From a virus, in the IMG/VR virus record IMGVR_UViG_3300028840_004475, positions 83,748 to 147,747 of that record: 64,000 nucleotides of DNA; one strand, given 5' to 3'. Shown here piece after piece: positions 29,393-51,711 of this stretch (the first letter of the stretch is position 1; each line of letters starts with the position of its first letter). Made by a program: the position numbers and the translations under genes. The notes beneath the pieces were generated by a model. That model was not told the DNA's origin. It worked only from the letters and a program-made list of their open reading frames with translations, and made no database searches.

Positions 29393-31126
29393 ATGCAGAC
29401 CTTCACCGAGGCAACGCGCTGGCGGAAGCCGACCAAGCGCAAGGGCAACGGCCGCAACTACGCCCAGCAGCGCCAGGTCATCCCAGGCAAGAGCCGGCTC
29501 ATGACTTCGACCTCGAGCGGCACCAAGGCCTTCAAGGTGGACGACTGGGGTCGCCTCGCCCGCTTCCTGATCCTGGGAGCAGACAAGCCGACCTTCTACG
29601 CGACGAAGCGCCAGCTGGTGCGGGACAACGCGAGGGTGGTCGAGCGCTGCATCAAGGAAGACGGTATCCGTACCGTGGACCTGATCGCGGAAGTGTCGAT
29701 TCAGGGCTCGGCGCCGAACAACGACCCGGCCCTGTTTGCGCTGGCAATGTGCGCGACCCTGGGTGGCCTCCACACCCGCCAGTACGCCCTCGGGCGCCTG
29801 TCGGACGTGGCGCGGATCGGAACGCACCTGTTCCACTTCGTGGCCTACTGCGAGGGTCTCGGTCACGGCTGGGGCCGGAACATGCGACGTGCGATCCGTG
29901 GGTGGTACAACGAGAAGGCGCCGGACAAGCTGGCGTATCAGATCCTGAAGTACAAGCAGCGTGACGGCTGGTCGCACAAGGATCTGCTCGCTCTGGCTCA
30001 CCCGCGCACTTCGAACAAGGAACGTGATGCCATCTACCGGTACATCGTGGCCGGCATCGATGGTCTGGGCAAGCGTACTGTCCTGAAGCACAACGGCCGC
30101 CGGAAGGTCCGCAAGACCTACCCGGACGTGTCACGTCACCTGCCGGCGCAGATCTTCGCCGCGCACGACGTGCACAAGGTCAGCAAGCGGAAGGCCAAGC
30201 AGCTCATCGAAGAGCACCGCATGACCCATGAGATGGTGCCGAACGAGCTGAAGAACGACCCAGAGGTCTGGGAGATCATGCTCGAGACGATGCCCATCGG
30301 AGCGATGGTGCGGAACCTCGGCAAGATGACCAGCATCGGCCTCCTGGACCGGATGTCCAGGGCCTCGAAGCTGGTGATCGACCGGCTGGGCGACATGGAG
30401 CGGATCCGTCGGGCGCGTCTGCACCCGATCGAGTTCCTCAAGGCCAACCGTGTCTACGGTGCCGGCCGCGGGGACAAGGGATCGCTGTGCTGGGATCCGG
30501 TGCGCGGGATCGTCCGAGCACTGGACGACGGGTTCTACCTGGCCTTCGGCGCGATCGAGCCGAGCGGCGTGAACACTGGTCTGTTCATCGACGTCTCTGG
30601 TTCGATGGCATGGGACACCTCACGCGTGAAGTCGATGGCGAACATGACCGCACGTGAGCTGTCAGGTGCCATGGCCCTGGTGACGGCGAACGTGGAGCCG
30701 TACTGGGAGATCATCGCCTTCTCCGGCGGCTACGACTCGCTCGAGGAGATCCCGATCGAGCCCGGCATGAAGCTGGACACGGTCGTGAACAGGATGGAGC
30801 GTATGCGAGCCGGCAGCACGAACCTGTCGCTACCGTTCGAGTACGCACGTGGACGCGGTGTCCCGATCGAGACGTTTATCGTCTACACAGACAACGAGAC
30901 GAATCACTTCGGCTCGCTGCATCCGTCGGAGGCACTGCGCAGGTACCGGAAAGAGACCGGCATCGACGCGAAGCTGATCGTGGTCGGCATGGTGGCGAAC
31001 GACATCTCGATCGCTGACCCGACCGATCACGGCATGTTGGATGTAGTTGGGTTCGACACGAACGCTCCGTCAGTGATGGCGGACTTCGCGAAGGGCGCCT
31101 ACGAGATCGACGTCGAGCAGGGCTGA
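29393..31126 (+). CDS. rsr: Ro60/Rsr RNA-binding protein (TROVE + vWA)
   Basis: DDW.RL.RFLILG, ARIGTHLFHF, KYKQRDGWSHKDLL.LAHP, MP.GAM.RNLGKMT, HP, DVSGSM MIDAS motif, YTDNET, IADP.D.GMLDVVGFD. Confidence 0.96.
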   Translation: MQTFTEATRWRKPTKRKGNGRNYAQQRQVIPGKSRLMTSTSSGTKAFKVDDWGRLARFLILGADKPTFYATKRQLVRDNARVVERCIKEDGIRTVDLIAEVSIQGSAPNNDPALFALAMCATLGGLHTRQYALGRLSDVARIGTHLFHFVAYCEGLGHGWGRNMRRAIRGWYNEKAPDKLAYQILKYKQRDGWSHKDLLALAHPRTSNKERDAIYRYIVAGIDGLGKRTVLKHNGRRKVRKTYPDVSRHLPAQIFAAHDVHKVSKRKAKQLIEEHRMTHEMVPNELKNDPEVWEIMLETMPIGAMVRNLGKMTSIGLLDRMSRASKLVIDRLGDMERIRRARLHPIEFLKANRVYGAGRGDKGSLCWDPVRGIVRALDDGFYLAFGAIEPSGVNTGLFIDVSGSMAWDTSRVKSMANMTARELSGAMALVTANVEPYWEIIAFSGGYDSLEEIPIEPGMKLDTVVNRMERMRAGSTNLSLPFEYARGRGVPIETFIVYTDNETNHFGSLHPSEALRRYRKETGIDAKLIVVGMVANDISIADPTDHGMLDVVGFDTNAPSVMADFAKGAYEIDVEQG

Positions 31127-31135
31127 CACGAGTTT

Positions 31136-31196
31136 GAGGGCCGGACGGCTTGGGTTATCTTGCAACGATACCCCCCAGGCCAAACACTTTGCCCTC
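31136..31196 (+). ncRNA. Y RNA 1 (short; apical loop TTGCAAC)
   Basis: GAGGGC-C-GGA...TTT-GCCCTC bulged-C Ro-binding stem, 9 nt after the Ro60 stop. Confidence 0.8.
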
Positions 31197-31205
31197 TTCA
31201 AGTTT

Positions 31206-31324
31206 GGCTGACGTAGCGATGTGGAAGGACACATGAGAGACGGCAGTAGCCCAAGGCTAGGTGTGTGCCGCCCCGTTTAGAGGAATCCTTGGGGAGCTGG
31301 TATCAAGGCCAGTCTGCGTCAGTC
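31206..31324 (+). ncRNA. Structured RNA, partly tRNA-like, without the Ro stem
   Basis: GGCTGACGTAG pairs with CTGCGTCAGTC; internal hairpins; same AGTTT leader as the Y RNA units. Confidence 0.55.
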
Positions 31325-31341
31325 GTTCTATGGAAGGATTT

Positions 31342-31452
31342 GTGGGCCGAATGGATTGCAGGGTTATCGATGGTTCGAATCCACCTGGCGGGTCTAAACC
31401 ACCCGCTATCGCCTAGCTGGTTAAGGCACCCCTGTACCAACAACTTGCCCAC
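31342..31452 (+). ncRNA. Y RNA 2, YrlA-type (T arm - closed acceptor - D arm)
   Basis: GTGGGCCGA...TTGCCCAC; GGTTCGAATCC, TGGCGGG/CCCGCTA, GCCTAGCTGGTTAAGGC. Confidence 0.88.
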
Positions 31453-31469
31453 TTTGAATTATGGGAGTT

Positions 31470-31597
31470 GCGGGCCGTAGACTGAACGTTATCTAAGCGC
31501 GCAATTTTGCGCTTATAGCTCAGTTGGTAGAGCGCCGGGGGTAGCCTCGGAGGTCGAGGGTTCGAATCCCTAACGACGTTCTTTCAGCTTTGTCCGC
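31470..31597 (+). ncRNA. Y RNA 3 (closed acceptor - D - anticodon-arm mimic - T)
   Basis: GCGGGCCGTA...TTTGTCCGC; TAAGCGC/GCGCTTA, TAGCTCAGTTGGTAGAGC, GGGTTCGAATCCC. Confidence 0.82.
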
Positions 31598-31619
31598 GCC
31601 CTACCTATTAGAGGAGTTT

Positions 31620-31682
31620 GAGGGCCGGAAGTCTTGGGTTATCACTTCGGATGATGCTTCCCAGGACACTAACTTTGCCCTC
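31620..31682 (+). ncRNA. Y RNA 4 (short; apical TATCA-CTTCGGA-TGATG)
   Basis: GAGGGCCGGA...TTTGCCCTC. Confidence 0.8.
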
Positions 31683-31701
31683 GTTTCTATACACTGAGTT
31701 T

Positions 31702-31768
31702 GTGGGCCGGAGGCAACGGGTTACCTTTCATTTGGAGAAAACACACCCATCGCCAACAACTTGCCCAC
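31702..31768 (+). ncRNA. Y RNA 5 (short; apical TTTC-ATTTGGA-GAAA)
   Basis: GTGGGCCGGA...CTTGCCCAC. Confidence 0.8.
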
Positions 31769-31787
31769 TTCGTTTTGAGAGGAGTTT

Positions 31788-31918
31788 GCGGGCCGTACGA
31801 AATAGGTTACCAATGCAAACTGTAGGTCGCGGGTTCGAGTCCCGTCATCGGCACCATGCCGATGTAGATCAGCTGGTAGATCAACAGTGGTTACACGCCT
31901 ACTTCACTTTTTGCCCGC
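31788..31918 (+). ncRNA. Y RNA 6 (tRNA permuted at the anticodon loop; acceptor closed by ACCAT)
   Basis: GCGGGCCGTA...TTTGCCCGC; ACTGT-AGGTC-T arm-CATCGGC ACCAT GCCGATG-D arm-ACAGT. Confidence 0.87.
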
Positions 31919-31940
31919 GTTTCAAAGGACACTATGGTTT

Positions 31941-32072
31941 GAGGGCCGGACGCACGTTGGGTTATCCACTCATAATGGAGAGGTCGCAGGTTCGAATCCT
32001 GTCGTGGCTTTAGCGAGTCACGTAGCTCAGTTGGTCAGAGCGCTAAACCCCCAATGTCAACTATTTGCCCTC
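31941..32072 (+). ncRNA. Y RNA 7 (anticodon arm CAT - T - closed acceptor - D)
   Basis: GAGGGCCGGA...TTTGCCCTC; TCCA-CTCATAA-TGGA, GCAGGTTCGAATCCTGT, CGTGGCT/AGTCACG, D arm. Confidence 0.87.
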
Positions 32073-32089
32073 GTTTTGAAGTAGAAGAG

Positions 32090-32380
32090 ATGAACACGAG
32101 AGAGACACGCATGTTGACAGAAGCAATCAGAGCAAACACGCGCGCCCTCCTCGAGAACACGAAGCTCTTGAAACGCTTCACGTCGAAGCAGGACCGCAAG
32201 AGCGATCTCGATGAGAGACGCAACCGACTACTGGCGAACATCCCGTACCTGAAGTCAGAGCTGAAGCAGTTCCGGCGTCAGGAGCTGGTGATGCTCGCTG
32301 CAGCCCTGGGGGTCAGGAACACATCAGTACCGAACACACGCCTCGTGGAAGTGATCTTCAGAGAACAGAAGCGAGCGTGA
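32090..32380 (+). CDS. Hypothetical protein with possible Rho_N/HeH-like C-terminus
   Basis: ELK...RQELVMLAAALGV.N.S......LVE.I. Confidence 0.5.
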   Translation: MNTRETRMLTEAIRANTRALLENTKLLKRFTSKQDRKSDLDERRNRLLANIPYLKSELKQFRRQELVMLAAALGVRNTSVPNTRLVEVIFREQKRA

Positions 32381-32577
32381 AGAAGCTGTACATCTGGTTC
32401 TGCGACAAGTGCAACTCGTTCGTACCAGCGACGTGTTGTCTGGCAACGAGCAAGAAGGCAGCATGGGACGGCGGTCAAGAACACCTGGTGAAGACGCACG
32501 ACTTGACTCACCACGCTACCGACATGGAGTTGTTCAAGGGCCGCGTCGTCATCTTGGAAGAGAAGACGAAAAAATAG
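32377..32577 (+). CDS. Small zinc-finger protein
   Basis: CDKC...H...H. Confidence 0.5.
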   Translation: MKKLYIWFCDKCNSFVPATCCLATSKKAAWDGGQEHLVKTHDLTHHATDMELFKGRVVILEEKTKK

Positions 32578-32578
32578 C

Positions 32579-32608
32579 TTGACAGATCGATAACCGATGC
32601 ATCACGAT
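32579..32608 (+). promoter_or_regulatory. sigma70-like promoter, tRNA operon 1
   Basis: TTGACA-N18-CACGAT. Confidence 0.65.
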
Positions 32609-32630
32609 GAAAACTTCGTCGGAGGATGCT

Positions 32631-32744
32631 ATGCACCGCGCAATTCAGATCACCACCATTCCCATCAAGCGCGACGGACGATTGTCCTTCCTCTGTTCCC
32701 TTTCGTCCCTATTTCTCTATTCCAATTCCGGCTGGCGACTGTAG
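32631..32744 (+). CDS. Leader peptide 1: MHRAIQITTIPIKRDGRLSFLCSLSSLFLYSNSGWRL
   Basis: GGAGG SD; 18 of the last 20 residues are L/S/F/C/Y/N/W, the amino acids of operon 1; stop is 12 nt before the first tRNA. Confidence 0.8.
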   Translation: MHRAIQITTIPIKRDGRLSFLCSLSSLFLYSNSGWRL

Positions 32745-32756
32745 ACGCATCTTTGC

Positions 32757-32840
32757 GGATCGGTAGCTGAGCTGGTTTAGCAGCGGGCTGTTAACCCGTG
32801 CCCTCGGGCTACGTGGGTTCGAGTCCCACCCGATCCGCCA
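32757..32840 (+). tRNA. tRNA-Asn(GTT), long variable arm
   Basis: Cloverleaf, loop CTGTTAA, CCA end. Confidence 0.85.
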
Positions 32841-32843
32841 TGT

Positions 32844-32912
32844 GGGCGCCAGGCTATGGCAGCCAAGCGGGCTCCAACCCCGCAGGACAGGGTTCGATTC
32901 CTTGGGCGCTCG
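32844..32912 (+). tRNA. tRNA-Trp(CCA)
   Basis: Loop CTCCAAC; CCA end not encoded. Confidence 0.8.
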
Positions 32913-32927
32913 TAGAAAGAAAAATGT

Positions 32928-33003
32928 GGACTCGTCGCTGAGTTGGTTCAGGCGCCTGGTTGAAGCCCAGGAGACGTTGGTTCGATTCCAACCGAGTCCA
33001 CCA
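32928..33003 (+). tRNA. tRNA-Phe(GAA)
   Basis: Loop TTGAAGC, CCA end. Confidence 0.9.
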
Positions 33004-33006
33004 AAC

Positions 33007-33082
33007 GCGGGCATAGCCCAACTGGTAGGAGGCGACGGTTTTAAGGTCCGTTCAGTGGTGGGTTCGAATCCCCCTGCCCGTA
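33007..33082 (+). tRNA. tRNA-Leu(TAA), short variable region
   Basis: Loop TTTAAGG. Confidence 0.8.
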
Positions 33083-33151
33083 TTCAAGGAAACGAACGAA
33101 AACTGAAATAAGGAGGTCGCCTCGAGCCCATGTTTCAAAAGATCAGCACAT

Positions 33152-33234
33152 GTCAGAGTGGCGGAATTGGTAGACGCGCAGGCCCGAGGAGCCTGTACTT
33201 CGGTGTGAGGGTTCGACTCCCTCCTCTGACACCA
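33152..33234 (+). tRNA. tRNA-Leu(GAG)
   Basis: Loop CCGAGGA, CCA end. Confidence 0.9.
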
Positions 33235-33237
33235 TGT

Positions 33238-33328
33238 GTAGCGGTGGCTGAGCGGTTGAAAGCACCAGACTGTAGATCTGGAGATCCGAAAGGGTCCAAC
33301 GGTGGTTCGAATCCATCCCGCTACACCA
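33238..33328 (+). tRNA. tRNA-Tyr(GTA)
   Basis: Loop CTGTAGA, long variable arm, CCA end. Confidence 0.9.
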
Positions 33329-33331
33329 TAT

Positions 33332-33407
33332 GCCCGTCTACCCCAATCTGGTACGAGGGGCTCGGCTCAGACCCGAGATGTTCCCGGTTCGAATCCGGGG
33401 GCGGGCA
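33332..33407 (+). tRNA. tRNA-Leu(CAG), short variable region
   Basis: Loop CTCAGAC. Confidence 0.85.
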
Positions 33408-33512
33408 AAATGAAAAGCCCCTGGCCACAGTGACCAGGGGCACCCTCGCTCCTCGGGGGAAGGACAACGAAGGTGAGCTGATCGTAGCAGGAGGCGAACA
33501 TAGTTCAAGTGT

Positions 33513-33595
33513 GCCGGGGTGGCGGAATTGGAATACGCGCTGGCCTCAAGCACCAGTGCTTCGGCATGAGGGTTCGACTCCCTCTCCCGGCACCA
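33513..33595 (+). tRNA. tRNA-Leu(CAA)
   Basis: Loop CTCAAGC, CCA end. Confidence 0.9.
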
Positions 33596-33596
33596 T

Positions 33597-33688
33597 GGAA
33601 GGTTGGCCGATGTTGGGATGGCGCCTGCTTGGAAAGCAGAGACCGGCCCGAGAGGGTCGCAGAGGTTCGATTCCTCTACCTTCCGCCA
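33597..33688 (+). tRNA. tRNA-Ser(GGA)
   Basis: Loop TTGGAAA, long variable arm, CCA end. Confidence 0.88.
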
Positions 33689-33689
33689 T

Positions 33690-33764
33690 GGGCAGTGGGT
33701 CTGTCGGGATGGATGCTGGATTGCAACCCCAGAGAAACTGGTTCGACTCCAGTACTGCCCTCCA
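33690..33764 (+). tRNA. tRNA-Cys(GCA)
   Basis: Loop TTGCAAC, U73, CCA end. Confidence 0.85.
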
Positions 33765-33795
33765 AAAAAAGAGGGGCCCTCGAGGGCCCCTCTTT
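33765..33795. terminator. Bidirectional intrinsic terminator
   Basis: A-tract-GAGGGGCCC-TCGA-GGGCCCCTC-TTT between convergent units. Confidence 0.8.
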
Positions 33796-33813
33796 AGCAG
33801 TCACCTCAGTTGA

Positions 33814-34338
33814 CTAGGCGGCTTCGAGCAGCACGAAGTAGATGTCGCCGCGGAACTCGACCCAGTCGCCGACGGAACCGGCCGTGTACGAGACGCTGAC
33901 GGCGGTTCCGTTGCACACGTGTCCCTCAGGAACCAGCACGCCACCACCGCTCTCGTCGACTGCCAGGAGTGCGCCGAGGGTCTGACCAGTGTTCAGGAGA
34001 GTCGGCTTCTGGATGCCGACGGCGCTGCAGTCGATGCCGACACCGAAGCCATCAGCGTCACCACCAACCTCGGTGGAGAGCAGACCAATGTCCATGGTCT
34101 TGGTGGCACCGGTGACCTCGGCGGCCGTCACGTCCACGTAGTATCCAAGGACGACACTCTTCAGCGGAAGGTCGACGCCGCTGTCCTGCTCGGTTCCATC
34201 GGGAGCCGCAGTGATCGGAACCCGGAGGGTCTTCGTGACTGCACCGCTCGCACTGAGATCACATTGTTCGTTGATCTCTGTGGCGGTGGCAGTGATCGAC
34301 TCCATCCACCTCTTGATAGGACGAACGATAAACCACAT
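33814..34338 (-). CDS. Virion-like beta-rich protein (possible capsid decoration)
   Basis: GAGGAGG SD before ATG at 34338; ITATATEIN motif; GC3 bias like the structural genes. Confidence 0.65.
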   Translation of the reverse strand: MWFIVRPIKRWMESITATATEINEQCDLSASGAVTKTLRVPITAAPDGTEQDSGVDLPLKSVVLGYYVDVTAAEVTGATKTMDIGLLSTEVGGDADGFGVGIDCSAVGIQKPTLLNTGQTLGALLAVDESGGGVLVPEGHVCNGTAVSVSYTAGSVGDWVEFRGDIYFVLLEAA

Positions 34339-34488
34339 ATTCAGCCTCCTCGTACCTAGCCAGGGCACGGTCTCCCACTGAACCATTCAATGGGGTTACA
34401 CCCTCGTTGGGGATTGGCTGTGCATATACTGCTACACATTGGCATTTATGTGCAACACAACTTTCTGGGAGATCAACCGAGAATTATC

Positions 34489-34518
34489 TTGACTGATCGA
34501 ATAGCGATCTCTTACGGT
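34489..34518 (+). promoter_or_regulatory. sigma70-like promoter, tRNA operon 2
   Basis: TTGACT-N18-TACGGT; spacer begins GATCGA as in the operon 1 promoter. Confidence 0.6.
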
Positions 34519-34527
34519 GAAGATCTC

Positions 34528-34650
34528 ATGTTGTACTCGTTGACCAGGAAAGCCAGACCATCCGTCGCCACAGCAGTGGCGAAGCGGACGGGCATGTGCC
34601 TGGTTATCGAGGGACAGACCCGCCATTTTCGAGATCCCAGCGCGGCGTAA
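34528..34650 (+). CDS. Leader peptide 2: MLYSLTRKARPSVATAVAKRTGMCLVIEGQTRHFRDPSAA
   Basis: ATG 9 nt after the -10 box (near-leaderless); has a codon readable by each of the 20 tRNAs in operon 2. Confidence 0.75.
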   Translation: MLYSLTRKARPSVATAVAKRTGMCLVIEGQTRHFRDPSAA

Positions 34651-34743
34651 ACTGTCCTTCAGCACTGGGAACCCGAAATCGGACAGACTCGAAAGTAACC
34701 AGGCTGGACGACAGCTGCGTCGCATCTGCTGATGCACGCCTGT

Positions 34744-34821
34744 GGGGGTGTGGCCTAGTCTGGTCTAGGGCGCCTGACTGTCGATCAGGAGACTTCGCCG
34801 GTTCGAATCCGGTCGCCCCCG
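34744..34821 (+). tRNA. tRNA-Asp(GTC)
   Basis: Loop CTGTCGA. Confidence 0.88.
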
Positions 34822-34832
34822 CTCTTTTTTGT

Positions 34833-34910
34833 GCGTCCGTAGCTGAATTGGATCAGCGCAGGTCTACGAAGCCTGGTCGTATGAGAGTTCGAGTCTCTCC
34901 GGGCGCGCCA
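34833..34910 (+). tRNA. tRNA-Arg(ACG)
   Basis: Loop CTACGAA, CCA end. Confidence 0.9.
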
Positions 34911-34923
34911 GGAGACGAAGTGT

Positions 34924-34999
34924 TGCGGTGTAGCTCAGCTGGTAGAGCGTCTGACTCTGGATCAGAAGGTCGTCGGTTCGAGACCGGCCGCCGCTGCCA
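34924..34999 (+). tRNA. tRNA-Gln(CTG)
   Basis: Loop CTCTGGA, CCA end. Confidence 0.9.
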
Positions 35000-35007
35000 T
35001 GTTTTGA

Positions 35008-35085
35008 TGCGACGTAGAGCAGTCTGGTTAGCTCAGGTGGCTCATAACCACCAGGTCGTGGGTTCAAATCCCACCGTCGCTACCA
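35008..35085 (+). tRNA. tRNA-Met(CAT), initiator-like
   Basis: Loop CTCATAA, 1:72 mismatch, GAGC/GCTC D stem. Confidence 0.88.
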
Positions 35086-35130
35086 CTTTTGAGGGCGGTG
35101 TGTCCTGGGCATTCCGCCCAGGAGACATTC

Positions 35131-35207
35131 GCTCCCGTAGCTCAGTTGGTCAGAGCGCTGGTCTGATAAACCAGAGATCGTTGGTTCAAGTCCAACCGGG
35201 AGTACCA
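35131..35207 (+). tRNA. tRNA-Ile(GAT)
   Basis: Loop CTGATAA, CCA end. Confidence 0.92.
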
Positions 35208-35211
35208 TTTT

Positions 35212-35287
35212 GCCGGGGTAGTTCAGTTGGTAGAACGCCGGTGTCACATACCGGAGGTCGCTGGTTCGAACCCAGCTCCCGGTACCA
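35212..35287 (+). tRNA. tRNA-Val(CAC)
   Basis: Loop GTCACAT, CCA end. Confidence 0.9.
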
Positions 35288-35300
35288 GATAGGTGGTTGA

Positions 35301-35374
35301 CCCCGTGTCGTCTAACTGGAAGGACGCCAGGTTTCCAACCTGGAGGTCTCGGTTCGGTTCCGAGTACGGGGTCC
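35301..35374 (+). tRNA. tRNA-Gly(TCC)
   Basis: Loop TTTCCAA, U73, CCA end. Confidence 0.88.
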
Positions 35375-35413
35375 AATTCTTGGGGTTGAAAGGGTAAGTA
35401 GAGATGAACAACT

Positions 35414-35485
35414 GGATCCGTAGCTCAGCGGTTGAGCAGCTCCCTCATAAGGAGAAGGGCGTTGGTTCAAATCCAACCGGGTCCA
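35414..35485 (+). tRNA. tRNA-Met or Ile2 (CAT)
   Basis: Loop CTCATAA. Confidence 0.85.
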
Positions 35486-35516
35486 TCAGACGAAGGCGGC
35501 GGCGGTAGCAATATGT

Positions 35517-35593
35517 GCCCACGTAGCCTAATTGGAGAGGCAACTGATTTCTACTCAGTTAATATGCGGGTTCGAGTCCTGCCGTGGGCGCCA
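35517..35593 (+). tRNA. tRNA-Arg(TCT)
   Basis: Loop TTTCTAC, CCA end. Confidence 0.9.
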
Positions 35594-35596
35594 TGT

Positions 35597-35668
35597 GCGC
35601 TCGTAGCCTAGCGGAGAGGCACTGGCCTCCGAAGCCAGACCACGTAGGTTCGAATCCTGCCGAGCGCG
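35597..35668 (+). tRNA. tRNA-Arg(CCG)
   Basis: Loop CTCCGAA. Confidence 0.88.
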
Positions 35669-35725
35669 CAAAGGAGGTTGACATCGCGAACCATCTCGTT
35701 TAATTTCAAATGAGGAGGTCCGCAA

Positions 35726-36334
35726 ATGGCCAAGAAAGAAGAACGCAAACAAGCTAGAACTATGCGCAGGGGTGGAAAGTCGATAGTACAAATTGCGAAA
35801 TTACTTGGTGTATCAAAATCAAGTGTATATTTATGGACAAAGGATTTACCTCAACCAAGAAAATTCACGAAAGAATATCGACGTAAACGAAAAGAAAAAG
35901 CTCTAGCACGTTTGAAGAAAGAAAGAGAGAAACGAGAGAAAGAAAAAGCGAATCGCAAACTATTGAGTTGCGGAGATAGATGGATCATACGAGTGCCACC
36001 TGGGTACAAAGGCAAAACATATATCGGAGGAAGATACGTTCTTCAAAGTAGATATTTGATGGAACAAAAACTTGGAAGATACCTAAAATATAACGAGTGT
36101 GTTCACCATAAAAACGGGGATAAACTGGACGATAGAATTGAGAATTTGGAATTACATACTAGGAAATTACATGGAGAGATACATGCAATTAGAAAAAGGA
36201 CTAAACTCAAATGTCCAATATGTGATGTAGAATTTGAACGCAAAAACAGTTATGTGAAAAGTCACATAAAACAAGGATACAAAGGTTTTTATTGTAGCAA
36301 AAGGTGTGCGGCCAAGAAACAAAAGGGAGTATAG
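35726..36334 (+). mobile_element. Free-standing HNH homing endonuclease
   Basis: N-terminal HTH, VHHKNGDKLDDRIENL, C-terminal Zn finger; markedly AT-rich; own TTGACA-N17-TAATTT promoter at 35678. Confidence 0.88.
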
Positions 36335-36401
36335 CTCAGCTGTTAGCAGCATTCGGCTTTTAACCGAAAGGTCGTGGGTTGGAACCCCACTGCTCCCACC
36401 A
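36325..36401 (+). tRNA. tRNA-Lys(TTT)
   Basis: Loop CTTTTAA; atypical D and T loops; CCA end. Confidence 0.85.
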
Positions 36402-36402
36402 T

Positions 36403-36479
36403 GGGTTCGTAGCTCAAGTAGGCAGAGCATCCGGTTCTTACCCGGAAGGTTGGGGGATCGTGGCCCTCCGAGCCCACCA
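36403..36479 (+). tRNA. tRNA-Lys(CTT)
   Basis: Loop TTCTTAC; T loop ATCGTGG; CCA end. Confidence 0.85.
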
Positions 36480-36645
36480 AAGGAAAGACGATGTGCCCGA
36501 AGCGAGACGAAGACATGGAATTCATGAGGCGTTCACTCGAGCGCCCGTGCGAACCATTTTTCTGGCCGAAGGATCCGGATGACCAACCGGCCTACGGCTA
36601 CGAGGAAGAGGACAGGATCGAATACGATCCACCACAAAGGAGAAA

Positions 36646-36996
36646 GTGATGTTGGTCGAGGTAGGCACAGTGAAGTACGTCGTGAACTGGAAGCACGAGC
36701 GTGAGTTCGACAGGTACGCGCTCGTCCAGGACGCACAAGTGTCCGGCGATGCAAAGTTGCTACGAGCGCTGGAGCTGTCCACAGGGCGTACCATCTGTCG
36801 CATCGAGAAGCTTGGTGGTACGTCAGAGGTCGAAGCAACGGTGTACTGCTCGAAGAAGGACATCTTCGAGAAGGACGAGGGTCGGAAGAGATCCCTCAAG
36901 AGGGCACTCGCGTTGCGTGGCTTCATGAAGCAGGAGAGAACGCTCTTCTGGGACGAGTACCACAACCGGAAGCCTCAGACGGCAGAGGCTGCGTAG
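36646..36996 (+). CDS. Hypothetical phage protein
   Basis: CS.KD.FEK..GR..SL.RAL motif common in phage proteins. Confidence 0.6.
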   Translation: MMLVEVGTVKYVVNWKHEREFDRYALVQDAQVSGDAKLLRALELSTGRTICRIEKLGGTSEVEATVYCSKKDIFEKDEGRKRSLKRALALRGFMKQERTLFWDEYHNRKPQTAEAA

Positions 36997-37008
36997 GAGT
37001 GAGCACGA

Positions 37009-37084
37009 CCGCGTATAGTTCAGTTGGTAGAATGCAACCTTGCCAAGGTTGATGTCGTGGGTTCGAACCCCACTACGCGGTCCA
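37009..37084 (+). tRNA. tRNA-Gly(GCC)
   Basis: Loop TTGCCAA, CCA end. Confidence 0.9.
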
Positions 37085-37091
37085 ATTTCGT

Positions 37092-37166
37092 GCCCGAATA
37101 GTTCAGTGGTAGAACGCTTGCTCGACACGCAAGAGGTCGTTGGTTCGATACCAACTTCGGGCACCA
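37092..37166 (+). tRNA. tRNA-Val(GAC)
   Basis: Loop TCGACAC, CCA end. Confidence 0.9.
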
Positions 37167-37226
37167 GGCCGGCTGTGGCCAAACCATTACGGTGGTTCCG
37201 GGAGCACCCGGGCAGCCGGCCCCCAT

Positions 37227-37302
37227 GCTGGGGTAGTTCAGATGGTGGAACGCGTCCTTGGTAAGGACGAGGTCGCGGGTTCGAGCCCCGCCCCTAGCTC
37301 CA
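37227..37302 (+). tRNA. tRNA-Thr(GGT)
   Basis: Loop TTGGTAA, CCA end. Confidence 0.92.
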
Positions 37303-37304
37303 AC

Positions 37305-37380
37305 GCTGGCGTAGTTCAGGAGGTAGAACAGGTCACTCGTAATGATCAGGTCGCTGGTTCAATTCCAGCCGTCAGCTCCA
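37305..37380 (+). tRNA. tRNA-Thr(CGT)
   Basis: Loop CTCGTAA, CCA end. Confidence 0.92.
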
Positions 37381-37381
37381 T

Positions 37382-37457
37382 GCTGGGTTAGCTCAGTTGG
37401 TAGAGCAGCTGATTTGTAATCAGCAGGTCGCAGGTTCGAGCCCTGTCCCCAGCTCCA
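37382..37457 (+). tRNA. tRNA-Thr(TGT)
   Basis: Loop TTTGTAA, CCA end. Confidence 0.92.
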
Positions 37458-37561
37458 GGAAGAATGATGTTGGACAAAATAGACAAGTTCGTTCGTGACT
37501 ACCTGCTATTGCCGGCGACATTCGTGTACGCGGCACTGCAGATTTGGAGGCTGTTTATTGT

Positions 37562-37638
37562 GGGGTCATAGCTCAGTTGGGAGTAGCGCCTGCCTTGCAA
37601 GCAGGAGGTCGTCGGTTCGATCCCGTCTGACTCCACCA
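37562..37638 (+). tRNA. tRNA-Ala(TGC)
   Basis: Loop CTTGCAA, G3:U70, CCA end. Confidence 0.92.
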
Positions 37639-37719
37639 GCCGACCCGCGGTGAAATGTCATTGGTGTGGCCCCGTGTCAATGACAGAAGGCAGCCTACGG
37701 GGCATTTGTAGGAGGTTCT

Positions 37720-37795
37720 GTTCCCGTCGTCTAGCGGTCTAGGATCTCGGCCTCTCACGCCGAGGACGCGGGTTCGAGTCCCGCCGGGAACACCA
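37720..37795 (+). tRNA. tRNA-Glu(CTC)
   Basis: Loop CTCTCAC, CCA end. Confidence 0.92.
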
Positions 37796-37871
37796 GGCCG
37801 AACCACAGGGCCGAGGCAATCGTTTGATGTGGTGACAGCCCGGAGAGACGGGCACTGTGGGCGTGTGCTGT

Positions 37872-37944
37872 GGCGTGTGTAGCTCAGTGGTAGAGCGTAC
37901 GGCTGTGGCCCGTACTGTCGCGGGTTCGATTCCCGTCATACGCC
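37872..37944 (+). tRNA. tRNA-His(GTG)
   Basis: Loop CTGTGGC, G-1:C73. Confidence 0.9.
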
Positions 37945-37955
37945 CACCTTTTTTG

Positions 37956-37983
37956 TTGACGACCTGCAAAAGATCTCGATAAT
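37956..37983 (+). promoter_or_regulatory. sigma70-like promoter, tRNA operon 3
   Basis: TTGACG-N16-GATAAT after a T-tract. Confidence 0.6.
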
Positions 37984-38003
37984 AGATCATGCAGGAGGAA
38001 GTT

Positions 38004-38120
38004 ATGTTCCGCTACACGATGGCAGCCATTTTCTTCATCGACCATTTCAACGCCGGTCATCTGCCGTCGCCATCCTCACCCTCGCCATCAGAACGACCCT
38101 CGAGTCCGCCGCAACGCTAA
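38004..38120 (+). CDS. Leader peptide 3: MFRYTMAAIFFIDHFNAGHLPSPSSPSPSERPSSPPQR
   Basis: AGGAGG SD; 16 of the last 18 residues are P/S/E/Q, matching the downstream tRNAs; stop is 8 nt before the first tRNA. Confidence 0.82.
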   Translation: MFRYTMAAIFFIDHFNAGHLPSPSSPSPSERPSSPPQR

Positions 38121-38128
38121 CACGCTTT

Positions 38129-38218
38129 GGTGCGATGGCCTAACTGGTAGGGAAGCGGTTTGCTAAACCGTCCGGGCGTTCACGCGTTCTGAAGGTTCGA
38201 GTCCTTCTCGCACCGCCA
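38129..38218 (+). tRNA. tRNA-Ser(GCT)
   Basis: Loop TTGCTAA, long variable arm, CCA end. Confidence 0.9.
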
Positions 38219-38221
38219 TAT

Positions 38222-38297
38222 CGGAGAGTGGGGTATACGGTAGCCCACCTGTTTCGGGGACAGGATGATGTCGGTTCGAGTCCGGCCTCTCCGACCA
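38222..38297 (+). tRNA. tRNA-Pro(CGG)
   Basis: Loop TTCGGGG, CCA end. Confidence 0.9.
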
Positions 38298-38375
38298 CGG
38301 GGTATAGCTCAGTTTGCGTAGAGCGTTTGGTTTGGGACCAAAAAGCCGGGGGTTCGAATCCCTCTACCCCGACCA
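38298..38375 (+). tRNA. tRNA-Pro(TGG)
   Basis: Loop TTTGGGA, CCA end. Confidence 0.9.
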
Positions 38376-38376
38376 T

Positions 38377-38469
38377 GGATGGACAAGCCGATGGTTGGCG
38401 ACGGCACCTGCCTCGAAAGCAGGCGAACCCGAAAGGGCCTTGGGGGTTCGATCCCCTCTCCATCCGCCA
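38377..38469 (+). tRNA. tRNA-Ser(CGA)
   Basis: Loop CTCGAAA, long variable arm, CCA end. Confidence 0.88.
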
Positions 38470-38472
38470 TTT

Positions 38473-38550
38473 GGGACGTGACTCTGTCAGACACGCAGGC
38501 AGAGGGGTAGAGAAGTCGTGCTCTCCCGGTTCGAGTCCGGCGCGTCCCCA
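38473..38550 (+). ncRNA. tRNA-like RNA (acceptor and T arm intact, D and anticodon arms replaced)
   Basis: GGGACGT/GCGTCCC, CCGGTTCGAGTCCGG, two non-canonical hairpins. Confidence 0.6.
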
Positions 38551-38551
38551 C

Positions 38552-38642
38552 GGAAGGCTGGCAGAATGGCTATTGCACCTGATTTGAAATCAGAGGTCGG
38601 CCTGAGAGGGTCGTGCGGGTTCGAGTCCTGCGCCTTCCGCCA
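38552..38642 (+). tRNA. tRNA-Ser(TGA)
   Basis: Loop TTTGAAA, long variable arm, CCA end. Confidence 0.9.
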
Positions 38643-38733
38643 ATTTTTAATGCAAAAATAGTCGCTGTACAACGTAGCTATTTATGATATCAAAAAAGAT
38701 CTGTACGCCAACACCAAACAAACGAGGAAACAG

Positions 38734-39009
38734 ATGACTGGCATCCAGATCGACGTCAACTACAAGACCAGAGGCCGCAACAAGGCCGCCACCTTCACTG
38801 CGGCATACCGCAACAGAGTCGTGCCGGCTGACGTCACTGTCCCAATCCGTAGGGGACGACCGACCTACACCCTGACGATTCCGACGCCGGTCAACATCGG
38901 CAATGGTGACACACTTTCGTTCACCATGAAGAATCTGGACGCCGCACTGGCTGCTCTAGCAGACTATGCGAAGAAGTGGCCGGCGCTCAACAAGGCCGGT
39001 ATGGCCTAG
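38734..39009 (+). CDS. Hypothetical protein
   Basis: GAGG SD, clean ORF. Confidence 0.55.
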   Translation: MTGIQIDVNYKTRGRNKAATFTAAYRNRVVPADVTVPIRRGRPTYTLTIPTPVNIGNGDTLSFTMKNLDAALAALADYAKKWPALNKAGMA

Positions 39010-39027
39010 AACAGAAGAGGAGATAAG

Positions 39028-39309
39028 ATGGCTGCGAAGGCAATGACGAAGACAGAGATCTGCAAGAAGCTGGCAGAAGCCAACGACATGAAACCGAAGG
39101 AGGCAAAGCTCTTCCTCGAATCGCTGGCACAGCTGGCCTACAAGGAGGCGAAGAACGGCTTCACCATCCCTGGCATCGGCAAGCTCGTCAAGCAGCGCCG
39201 TAAGGCGCGTGACGGTCGCAACCCGGCCACCGGTGAGAAGATCCGCATCAAGGCCAAGACCGTCCTGAAGTTCAGGGTCTCGAAGGTCGCGAAGGACGCG
39301 ATTCTGTAG
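39028..39309 (+). CDS. hup: HU family DNA-binding protein
   Basis: MTKTEI...IPGIGK...RKARDGRNPATGEKIRIKAK.V.KFR. Confidence 0.93.
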   Translation: MAAKAMTKTEICKKLAEANDMKPKEAKLFLESLAQLAYKEAKNGFTIPGIGKLVKQRRKARDGRNPATGEKIRIKAKTVLKFRVSKVAKDAIL

Positions 39310-39316
39310 CAATACA

Positions 39317-39390
39317 GCTCCTGTCGTTCAATGGTAGGACGCCGGGTTTTCAACCCGGTAACCGGGGATCAATACCCCGCAGGAGCACCA
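39317..39390 (+). tRNA. tRNA-Glu(TTC)
   Basis: Loop TTTTCAA, CCA end. Confidence 0.88.
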
Positions 39391-39415
39391 ACCTTGCCGC
39401 CTTCGGGCGGCTTTT

Positions 39416-39490
39416 GGGGGCATCGTCCAATGGCTAGGACATCGGCCTTTGGAGCCGGCGATGAGGGTTCGAGTCCCTCTGCCCCTTCCA
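39416..39490 (+). tRNA. tRNA-Gln(TTG)
   Basis: Loop CTTTGGA, CCA end. Confidence 0.9.
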
Positions 39491-39746
39491 CAGCACCGCG
39501 TCATGAGACAACTATATGTGTCTCGAGCGAATTCGGTATCAAACGAGGAATGTGGGTCAAGATCGATTATGACTGGTCACCGACCTTCAAGTTCCTCGGT
39601 CACGAATTCAAGTTCCAATGGCCAGTACAGTTTAAGCCATTCAGGTTCGCTCCGTACTTGCTAATCAGACGTATCAGCAAGTATCGTGGTCTCTTCCAAG
39701 TGGCTTCGGTGATAGACAGTACCACAGTCACTTTGTCGGAGTAATC

Positions 39747-40025
39747 ATGTCAGACACCTGGTACGTGCTTCAAAATCTTGAGCAACTCAACTTGGATGAC
39801 GTGAAGGAACCACCGTGCGGCAAGTGCTACTGGTGGGATCCTGCATTCGAGTATGGGGCGGATGGTCGGACTGGCGTTGCGTTCTGCAGAGCTGACGAGA
39901 TGGAATGCGACTTCAGCTGTTTCCGTCCTCGGAGGTCTCCAAAGGGTGTTCCTTCAGCAAGAGACGCGTCTGCTCGAGGAGCCGAGGGCGACTCTGACCA
40001 AAACCCTGAGCAACTGACAGATTGA
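39747..40025 (+). CDS. Hypothetical Cys-rich protein
   Basis: CGKC...FC...C..C; GGAG SD. Confidence 0.45.
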   Translation: MSDTWYVLQNLEQLNLDDVKEPPCGKCYWWDPAFEYGADGRTGVAFCRADEMECDFSCFRPRRSPKGVPSARDASARGAEGDSDQNPEQLTD

Positions 40026-40295
40026 GCCACCCACGAAGCAAACCGAGACAACGAGCTTCACGACCTTCTGCTTTGATTCTCGCATCGCGCTCTGCTTCCC
40101 AGTTGCTGTGCGGAACAAAGTTTCCGCTGTCCGTTGGTTCCATTTCAGATCGCATTGAGTAGCGTGGCACAGGACTGCAGAACCCACTACCAACAGATGC
40201 ATCGTCGCTCACTGTGACCTCGAAGTGCTGCTGCACCCCCCGAGACCTTTCCTACGCCCTGGTCGGATCTCGAGGGGCCAGCAGCATGAACCCTG

Positions 40296-50854: not shown

Positions 50855-50930
50855 CACCCGCGGTGGGACTCGAACCCACGACCTCCCAGGTCCATAGGCT
50901 GGGCACTCTACCGAACTGAGCTACGCGGGT
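50855..50930 (-). tRNA. tRNA-like element with 9-nt anticodon loop CCTATGGAC (copy A)
   Basis: ACCCGCG/CGCGGGT acceptor, canonical D arm, CCCAG/CTGGG, GTGGGTTCGAGTCCCAC. Confidence 0.8.
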
Positions 50931-51621: not shown

Positions 51622-51635
51622 ACTCTCTCCTGTTG

Positions 51636-51711
51636 CGCCCGCGGCGGGACTCGAACCCGCGACCTCCAAGGTCCATAGGCTTGGCACTCTACCTTGCTGA
51701 GCTACGCGGGC
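51636..51711 (-). tRNA. tRNA-like element with 9-nt anticodon loop CCTATGGAC (copy B)
   Basis: GCCCGCG/CGCGGGC, CCAAG/CTTGG, GCGGGTTCGAGTCCCGC. Confidence 0.8.

Follow-up and report, generated by a model that had tools for sequence, protein, structure and literature searches.

A short ORF heading a phage tRNA unit contains codons for all tRNAs of the unit and may gauge their supply

The multivalent leader-peptide attenuators of enterobacteria include thrL, the leaders of ilvGMEDA and ilvBN, hisL, trpL, pheL and leuL; PMC3082878 and PMC4046918 are among the papers on pheL and the his leader. Another family is formed by the uORF-dependent Rho attenuators such as tnaC-tnaAB, the speF leader, cruR-bfrG, mgtL-mgtA and corL-corA, and the uORF-shielded Rho site is an established mechanism (PMC12360218). 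In this family, which has no intrinsic terminator, read-through is decided by a ribosome that sits on a C-rich Rho loading site or beside it. In cruR, an intragenic Rho site is shielded by a stalled ribosome, and mgtL senses via proline codons (PMC12360218). The opposite polarity is also described: ribosome stalling can uncouple translation from transcription and raise Rho termination (PMC5021804). The trn L-array of Anabaena sp. PCC 7120 is induced under translational stress (PMC8421152), and the trn repressor TrcR binds direct repeats over the -10 and the start site (PMC10272220). The words 'leader' and 'attenuat' are absent from PMC8421152. In our literature search, the Anabaena trn operon was the only published regulated accessory tRNA array found, and no published leader peptide before tRNA genes was found.

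We describe here leader 3, a short ORF that precedes a group of tRNA genes in an uncultured phage. The window, i.e. the whole stretch of DNA that was analysed (64,000 nucleotides), covers the final 64 kb of a phage record of 147,747 bp that has direct terminal repeats, and the phage carries terminase, portal and protease genes. We consider it moderately probable that leader 3 is a translated, promoter-proximal and cis-acting gauge of the tRNAs of its own unit, and that ribosome stalling in it raises the output of that unit.

The leader 3 ORF and the tRNA unit downstream

ARAGORN called 37 tRNA genes on the plus strand at 32757-39490. Leader 3 lies inside this array (Table 1) and is preceded by two other leader ORFs, leader 1 (32631-32744) and leader 2 (34528-34650). 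Directly upstream of the array is a Ro60/TROVE gene (PF05731) at 29393-32072, which together with the proposed tRNA gauges suggests heavy investment of the phage in RNA quality control; the Ro60 relatives examined had no comparable tRNA arrays. Far from the array, ARAGORN made two 'tRNA-His' calls with the unusual anticodon ATG on the minus strand (50855-50930 and 51635-51711).

Table 1. Features of the leader 3 locus, with positions in the window
Feature	Position	Strand	Evidence or remark
Promoter, -35 TTGACG, 16-nt spacer, -10 GATAAT	37956-37983	+	Sigma-70-like
Shine-Dalgarno AGGAGGA	37993-37999	+	4 nt before ATG; read from sequence
Leader 3 ORF	38004-38120	+	ATG 38004, TAA 38118-38120, 38 sense codons
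Leader 3 codons 1-20, neutral half	38004-38063	+	No P/S/E/Q
Leader 3 codons 21-38 and TAA, sensor half	38064-38120	+	Pro/Ser run, GAA, CAA
tRNA-Ser(GCT), tRNA-Pro(CGG), tRNA-Pro(TGG), tRNA-Ser(CGA)	38129-38469 (starts 38129, 38222, 38298, 38377)	+	ARAGORN, Rfam
tRNA-like element, unannotated	38473-38551	+	Spacer between Ser(CGA) and Ser(UGA); not called by ARAGORN
tRNA-Ser(TGA)	38552-38642	+	ARAGORN, Rfam
Candidate internal promoter, TGTACA, 16 nt, TGa-TATCAA	38666-38693	+	Read from L064 alignment
ORF91, 91 aa, no known family	38734-39009	+	ORF call
HU-like DNA-binding protein, 93 aa	39028-39309	+	phrog_379 3e-17, PF00216
tRNA-Glu(TTC)	39317-39390	+	ARAGORN, Rfam; cognate to the single GAA of the leader
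Hairpin GCCGCC-TTCG-GGCGGC, then TTTT	39396-39415	+	-15.5 kcal/mol
tRNA-Gln(TTG)	39416-39490	+	ARAGORN, Rfam; cognate to the single CAA of the leader

The promoter of leader 3 has 10/12 consensus matches and is the best sigma-70-like site in 32000-40200. A preliminary description of this DNA had noted that the first 20 codons lack Pro, Ser, Glu and Gln, and translation of 38004-38120 confirmed it; 19-codon windows free of these four amino acids make up 0.9% of all windows. Codons 21-38 are identical to the tail listed in that description and contain GAA and CAA once each beside 13 Pro/Ser codons, CGA and CGC. The sensor segment is C-rich as had been described, and it is also G-poor and unstructured: the C/G ratio over the last 78 nt is 2.33 in the window and 2.85 in the related phage R2 (see below), which is within the top 2.6% and 0.5% of windows, respectively. 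This C-richness is largely forced by the CCN (Pro) and TCN (Ser) codons. ARAGORN and Rfam agree with the downstream tRNAs that had been named, i.e. Ser GCT, CGA and TGA and Pro CGG and TGG, and later Glu TTC and Gln TTG, and the HU protein that had been placed among the two ORFs before Glu and Gln was recognized by both phrog_379 and PF00216.

The stop codon of leader 3 is 8 nt from tRNA-Ser(GCT). Other ORFs in the array also stop close to the next tRNA, such as HU (7 nt before tRNA-Glu) and a 116-aa ORF (12 nt). Since short gaps of this kind are general in the array, that of leader 3 is not diagnostic. The unannotated element between the last two tRNA-Ser genes has acceptor-like end pairing and the T-loop motif GGTTCGAGTCC, its 'anticodon' region is odd, its Rfam match is weak (19.6 bits), and it is missing from the related contig L064 in the alignment. 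ORF91 has a sole homologue, which is 74% identical and occupies the same position in L064. The hairpin between tRNA-Glu and tRNA-Gln(UUG) has a UUCG loop and a stem identical in L064, and may serve as a partial terminator or as an element for processing or stability.

Two sequence features of the leaders and promoters were also observed. The rare codon CGA (8% of Arg codons) accounts for 5 of the 13 Arg codons in leaders 1 to 3 and the leader of phage G001 (contig L063), always with one within the last 2-9 codons; G001 is without a tRNA reading CGA. CGA in the leaders may be a programmed slow codon. The octamer AAAAATAG is present in five copies against 0.3 expected, at 32570, 38654, 24492(-), 48408 and 1671(-), and two of these directly precede the leader 1 promoter and the candidate promoter at 38666. 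GATC palindromes near promoters were dismissed as nothing special, because GATC is common genome-wide (6 per kb).

Codon content of the leaders and tRNA content of the units

An operon was taken to comprise every tRNA between a leader and the following one, which leaves no free parameter. The 18 codons of the sensor half include a codon for all downstream tRNAs of the unit (7/7). CCG, CCA, TCG, TCA, AGY, GAA and CAA are found together in 20 of 184,250 control windows, which were stop-free stretches of 18 codons in six frames of the whole 147.7-kb genome, and only two regions contain windows in which 13 or more of 17 codons are cognate to the unit-3 tRNAs. The leaders at 32631, 34528 and 38004 cover 10/10, 19/19 and 7/7 of their own tRNAs with lower off-diagonal coverage, and random partitions of the tRNAs gave full coverage at a rate of 1 in 200,000. 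Resampling of synonymous codons gave p = 0.004 for the three leaders together; for leader 3 alone the synonymous-codon choice was not significant (p = 0.23). GAA and CAA are minority codons (34% and 23%). The match is not exclusive: the tail of 18 codons includes five (TCC, two CCC, CGA and CGC) that unit-3 tRNAs do not read. As a negative control, the small ORFs before Pro/Ser tRNAs in Streptomyces phage WhereRU were ordinary proteins and were not codon-matched.

The TerL of this phage has only distant cultured relatives (32% identity at most), and a near-identity search of cultured phages yielded no relative. Along the 20,276 bases of the locus, ENA contig L066 does not differ from the window at any position and therefore provides no usable polymorphism. 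Alignment of leader 3 against IMG/VR gave no match of use, ORF91 gave nothing useful in IMG/VR and the JGI metagenomes, the conserved tRNA-Ser block as query found no useful relatives, and the 116-aa ORF of the array was without homologue. In the L064 lineage the order Ser-ORF91-HU-Glu-Gln is kept; the L064 contig ends before reaching leader 3, and two relatives, R2 and G001, were informative for the leader comparison. The hypothesis preceded the tests on these two phages.

A profile search with the leader 3 ORF over 1.84 billion proteins found a single relative, P0127, which has 36 aa, is 76% identical and starts at the same Met. It is encoded on a 78.8-kb ENA contig (L070) of phage R2, whose 38 tRNAs are in nearly the same order as those of the window. 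In R2, however, tRNA-Gln(UUG) and tRNA-Glu(UUC) are inside operon 2, upstream of leader 3, and operon 3 consists of Ser-GCT, Pro-TGG, Pro-CGG, Pro-GGG and Ser-CGA, followed by a hairpin and opposite-strand genes. Codons for Glu and Gln are absent from R2 leader 3, and R2 leader 2 has gained both CAA and GAA, whereas the window phage is the reverse, with leader 2 lacking GAA and CAA and leader 3 having both. The count of CCC goes from 2 in leader 3 of the window to 4 in that of R2, where the Pro-GGG tRNA is present. The R2 leaders cover 9/10, 22/22 and 5/5 of their own tRNAs, and the chance of the eight presence/absence outcomes is estimated from codon usage at about 0.003. Read from the sequences of the two phages, leader wording co-evolves with tRNA membership. 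The GAA/CAA switch, which we regard as the decisive evidence, strongly supports the proposal, already made in the preliminary description, that these codons tie tRNA-Glu(UUC) and tRNA-Gln(UUG), i.e. cluster F, to leader 3; the codons track the tRNAs in R2.

The expression signals and the reading frame of leader 3 are also kept in R2. The -35 and -10 hexamers are each conserved at 5/6 positions, and the sequences between the signals are 35-44% identical (44% for the promoter spacer). AGGAGG is found 6 nt before the ATG amid diverged surrounding sequence, and R2 has no counterpart of the in-frame ATG further upstream at 37989. Nucleotide identity is 87% in codons 1-20 and 81% in codons 21-27, and the flanking tRNA genes are below this (67-79%). 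The neutral half of R2 leader 3 likewise lacks Pro, Ser, Glu and Gln; 15 of the 20 N-terminal residues, which are rich in Phe, Ile and Ala, are identical. Substitutions in codons 1-27 are distributed 3/1/8 over codon positions 1/2/3, and the first seven sensor residues, PSPSSPS, are the same despite four third-position changes. Further downstream a 2-nt indel shifts the frame (38106-38120, CCG CAA CGC TAA, versus L070:10097-10111, CCG ACG CTC TAG). It creates the CAA of the window, and the stop is kept within one codon, a few nt from the tRNA, in both phages. Since the substitutions are mainly at third positions and the ATG at 37989 is not conserved, leader 3 is very probably translated from the ATG at 38004. 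The coding-type conservation relative to R2 favours translation.

Leader 2 (region 34490-34746; L070:6840-7092) has no Shine-Dalgarno sequence, and its ATG is 7-9 nt after a conserved TACnnT -10 that stands behind a conserved TTGACT -35, so its mRNA may be leaderless. In both phages, a segment located about 70 nt further on pairs with the stop region of leader 2, one of the base pairs being compensatory.

Phage G001, with a complete genome of 142.9 kb, has a TerL that is 52% identical. Its leader is a 37-codon ORF in the same ribosome-site context, located 13 nt before a tRNA-Asn/Trp pair, and has codons for 17 of the 18 tRNAs downstream over 7 kb, several of which are separated by protein genes; the terminal Gln(UUG) is among those covered. 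It has codons for none of the four upstream tRNAs whose anticodons occur only upstream. Unlike leader 1 of the window, the G001 leader contains codons for Asp and Pro, which have downstream tRNAs in that phage, and none for Cys, which has its tRNA upstream. The same-position leaders of the window phage and G001 share composition but not sequence.

Output step, extent of the unit and alternative explanations

If leader 3 is a gauge, codons 1-20 would bring the ribosome in without use of the sensed tRNAs, and codons 21-38 would sample every downstream tRNA (Ser GCT/CGA/TGA, Pro CGG/TGG, Glu TTC and Gln TTG). If any of them were scarce, the ribosome would stall in the tail, and production of the tRNA unit would increase. 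That stalling raises output, and by what route, is what we infer. No antiterminator/terminator hairpin pair was found between leader 3 and the first tRNA and no terminator-like site was called in the 8-nt gap, and the leader folded no better than shuffles either alone (z = +0.43) or with the first tRNA (z = -0.34). The missing hairpins, together with a stop 8 nt from the tRNA, exclude a classical hairpin attenuator, so that the output step is a guess. Because there is no hairpin switch, we prefer occlusion of a Rho site: the tail, with its C-rich, G-poor and unstructured character, fits a Rho loading site, which the stalled ribosome would mask by analogy with tnaC, cruR or mgtL. We advance this output step tentatively and hold it to be doubtful. 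Since neither leader 2 nor the G001 leader is C-rich, Rho masking cannot be the general output.

Other routes involving RNA structure were considered. Sequestration of the first tRNA by leader 3 was rejected, because pairing between its tail and this tRNA is not above that of shuffled tails (51% and 32% of shuffles were as good in two tests). For R2 leader 3, 25% of shuffles were as good, and the pairing of the leader 1 tail was also no better than shuffles. In G001, the last 48 nt or so of the leader and the 5' half of tRNA-Asn fold into a long imperfect hairpin (minus strand, about 9489-9570 of L063), at -61.5 kcal/mol versus -43.6 +/- 4.8 for shuffles, none of 200 being as good. This predicted fold hints that the G001 leader may sequester its first tRNA. 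An Rfam search over 37850-39650 (E <= 1) found no T-box (RF00230) or other family besides tRNAs, and the idea that leader 3 is a decayed tRNA or a known RNA family was dropped for want of Rfam support.

As for the extent of the unit, tRNA-Ser(UGA) is followed by ATTTTT without a stable hairpin (-0.7 kcal/mol). A tRNA end with a T-run acting as a terminator, after either tRNA-His or tRNA-Ser(UGA), was rejected because neither forms a stable hairpin. There is no terminator between 38642 and 38734, so read-through is expected, and transcription would pass from the Ser/Pro tRNAs via ORF91 and HU to Glu and Gln, which would place HU under control of the leader. The gene order kept in L064 and the co-variation of leaders with tRNAs also favour read-through. 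Plus-strand genes continue as far as about 40025 without a terminator call, and the unit may thus reach beyond 39490. A possible but doubtful alternative is that leader 3, still a translated and codon-matched sensor, heads a unit that ends functionally at tRNA-Ser(UGA); ORF91, HU, Glu and Gln would then be expressed mainly from a promoter near 38666-38693, and GAA and CAA would reflect a shared need or co-regulation, not co-transcription. In L064 this element reads TGGACA, 17 nt, TGa-TACTCA, so that a hexamer pair with a TGn extension is kept inside an otherwise indel-rich spacer, downstream of an A/T-rich stretch; ORF91 and HU have their own ribosome sites, and the stable hairpin with UUUU stands before tRNA-Gln. 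The candidate promoter and this hairpin could make cluster F partly independent. However, the candidate -10 is without the conserved final T and was not called by the consensus promoter scan, and the expected read-through argues against an end at tRNA-Ser(UGA). That GAA and CAA have moved reciprocally between leaders 2 and 3 would be difficult to account for if Glu/Gln output did not depend on leader 3, and the codon catalogue of the G001 leader likewise spans tRNAs interrupted by ORFs.

The remaining alternatives concern the leader itself. A translated and codon-matched leader may work by another logic, which seems unlikely to us: stalling would uncouple RNA polymerase so that Rho cuts the unit (positive feedback or a checkpoint), or the ribosome would shield the 5' end, or it would govern RNase P access to the first tRNA. 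The tail contains PP in the window and PPP in R2, and pausing at PP motifs is known to promote Rho termination (PMC5021804), but positive feedback would starve the phage of exactly its missing tRNAs. Across three phages, leaders 1 and 3 stop 6-13 nt before their first tRNA, so a terminating ribosome would cover the RNase P site, and the G001 tail pairs with the 5' half of tRNA-Asn; on the other side, ordinary ORFs in the array have short gaps as well, and both in this phage and in R2 the pairing of leaders 1 and 3 is at shuffle level. It is improbable that the ORF encodes a functional small protein, e.g. a membrane or regulatory peptide with a hydrophobic N-half and a Pro/Ser tail, and owes its position to genome compaction. 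Such a protein would account for the identity of the N-terminal residues in R2 and for their composition, and ordinary small ORFs ending just before tRNAs do exist in the array and in WhereRU, but it would predict neither the full tRNA coverage of three leaders in two phages and of the G001 leader nor the GAA/CAA swap. It is also at odds with the likeness in composition, not sequence, of the same-position leaders of the window phage and G001, with a tail whose frame is shifted relative to R2 while the stop near the tRNA is kept, and with the finding of one relative only in the protein search. Very unlikely is a functionless chance ORF in a C-/pyrimidine-rich spacer. Pro/Ser runs arise easily in C-rich DNA, and two other genome loci have comparable Pro/Ser-codon windows. 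The joint match statistics oppose it, as do the retention in R2 of the promoter, ribosome site, start and ORF between scrambled spacers, the substitutions at third positions, and the co-variation of the wording with tRNA content in G001 and R2.

Significance and comparison with described systems

Beyond leader 3 as a gauge of its own unit, we regard as evenly balanced the broader proposition that large-array phages possess an undescribed class of codon-specific gauges. A mini-ORF would head each tRNA unit and sample all its tRNAs, and selection would rewrite it when tRNA genes change units; slow decoding, e.g. under host tRNA depletion or anticodon nucleases, would lead to more tRNA, with no terminator hairpin in this lineage. 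A link to tRNA cleavage by host defences is speculation. If true, the virus would measure decoding capacity codon set by codon set and adjust its own tRNA supply, which bears on why phages carry tRNAs, whether to compensate for codon usage or to evade depletion of host tRNAs and defences that cleave tRNAs. That leaders 2 and 3 were rewritten reciprocally when two tRNA genes moved to another unit is a rare and clean case of regulatory co-evolution that is readable from sequence. As a practical rule, leader wording would predict the unit membership of tRNAs and of embedded genes such as HU, and such leaders could serve as compact, programmable sensors of single tRNA species.

Like the leader-peptide attenuators, leader 3 is a short 5' ORF in which codons would report charged-tRNA supply, with several amino acids in one peptide. 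It differs from them in that it precedes tRNA genes instead of biosynthetic enzymes, has a near one-codon-per-tRNA catalogue instead of single-codon runs, and lacks a terminator/antiterminator hairpin, with 8 nt from the stop to the first gene. The phage leaders are also longer (36-42 codons) and have a distinct neutral half. With the uORF/Rho attenuators, leader 3 shares the lack of an intrinsic terminator and, judging from its base composition and predicted folding, a C-rich, G-poor, unstructured and proline-rich tail. However, tnaC, speF and cruR stall by a small ligand and an arrest peptide, whereas hungry codons are proposed for leader 3, and leader 2 and the G001 leader depart from this family in not being C-rich. 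T-box riboswitches likewise couple tRNA status to translation-related genes through a codon-like specifier, but they bind uncharged tRNA via RNA structure and are untranslated, whereas leader 3 is a predicted translated ORF. The Anabaena trn L-array also consists of accessory tRNAs, and its expression goes up when translation is impaired, as is proposed here; its control depends on a protein repressor, is not codon-specific and involves no leader ORF. If the proposal is true, leader 3 would be the first described case of tRNA genes under leader-peptide control.
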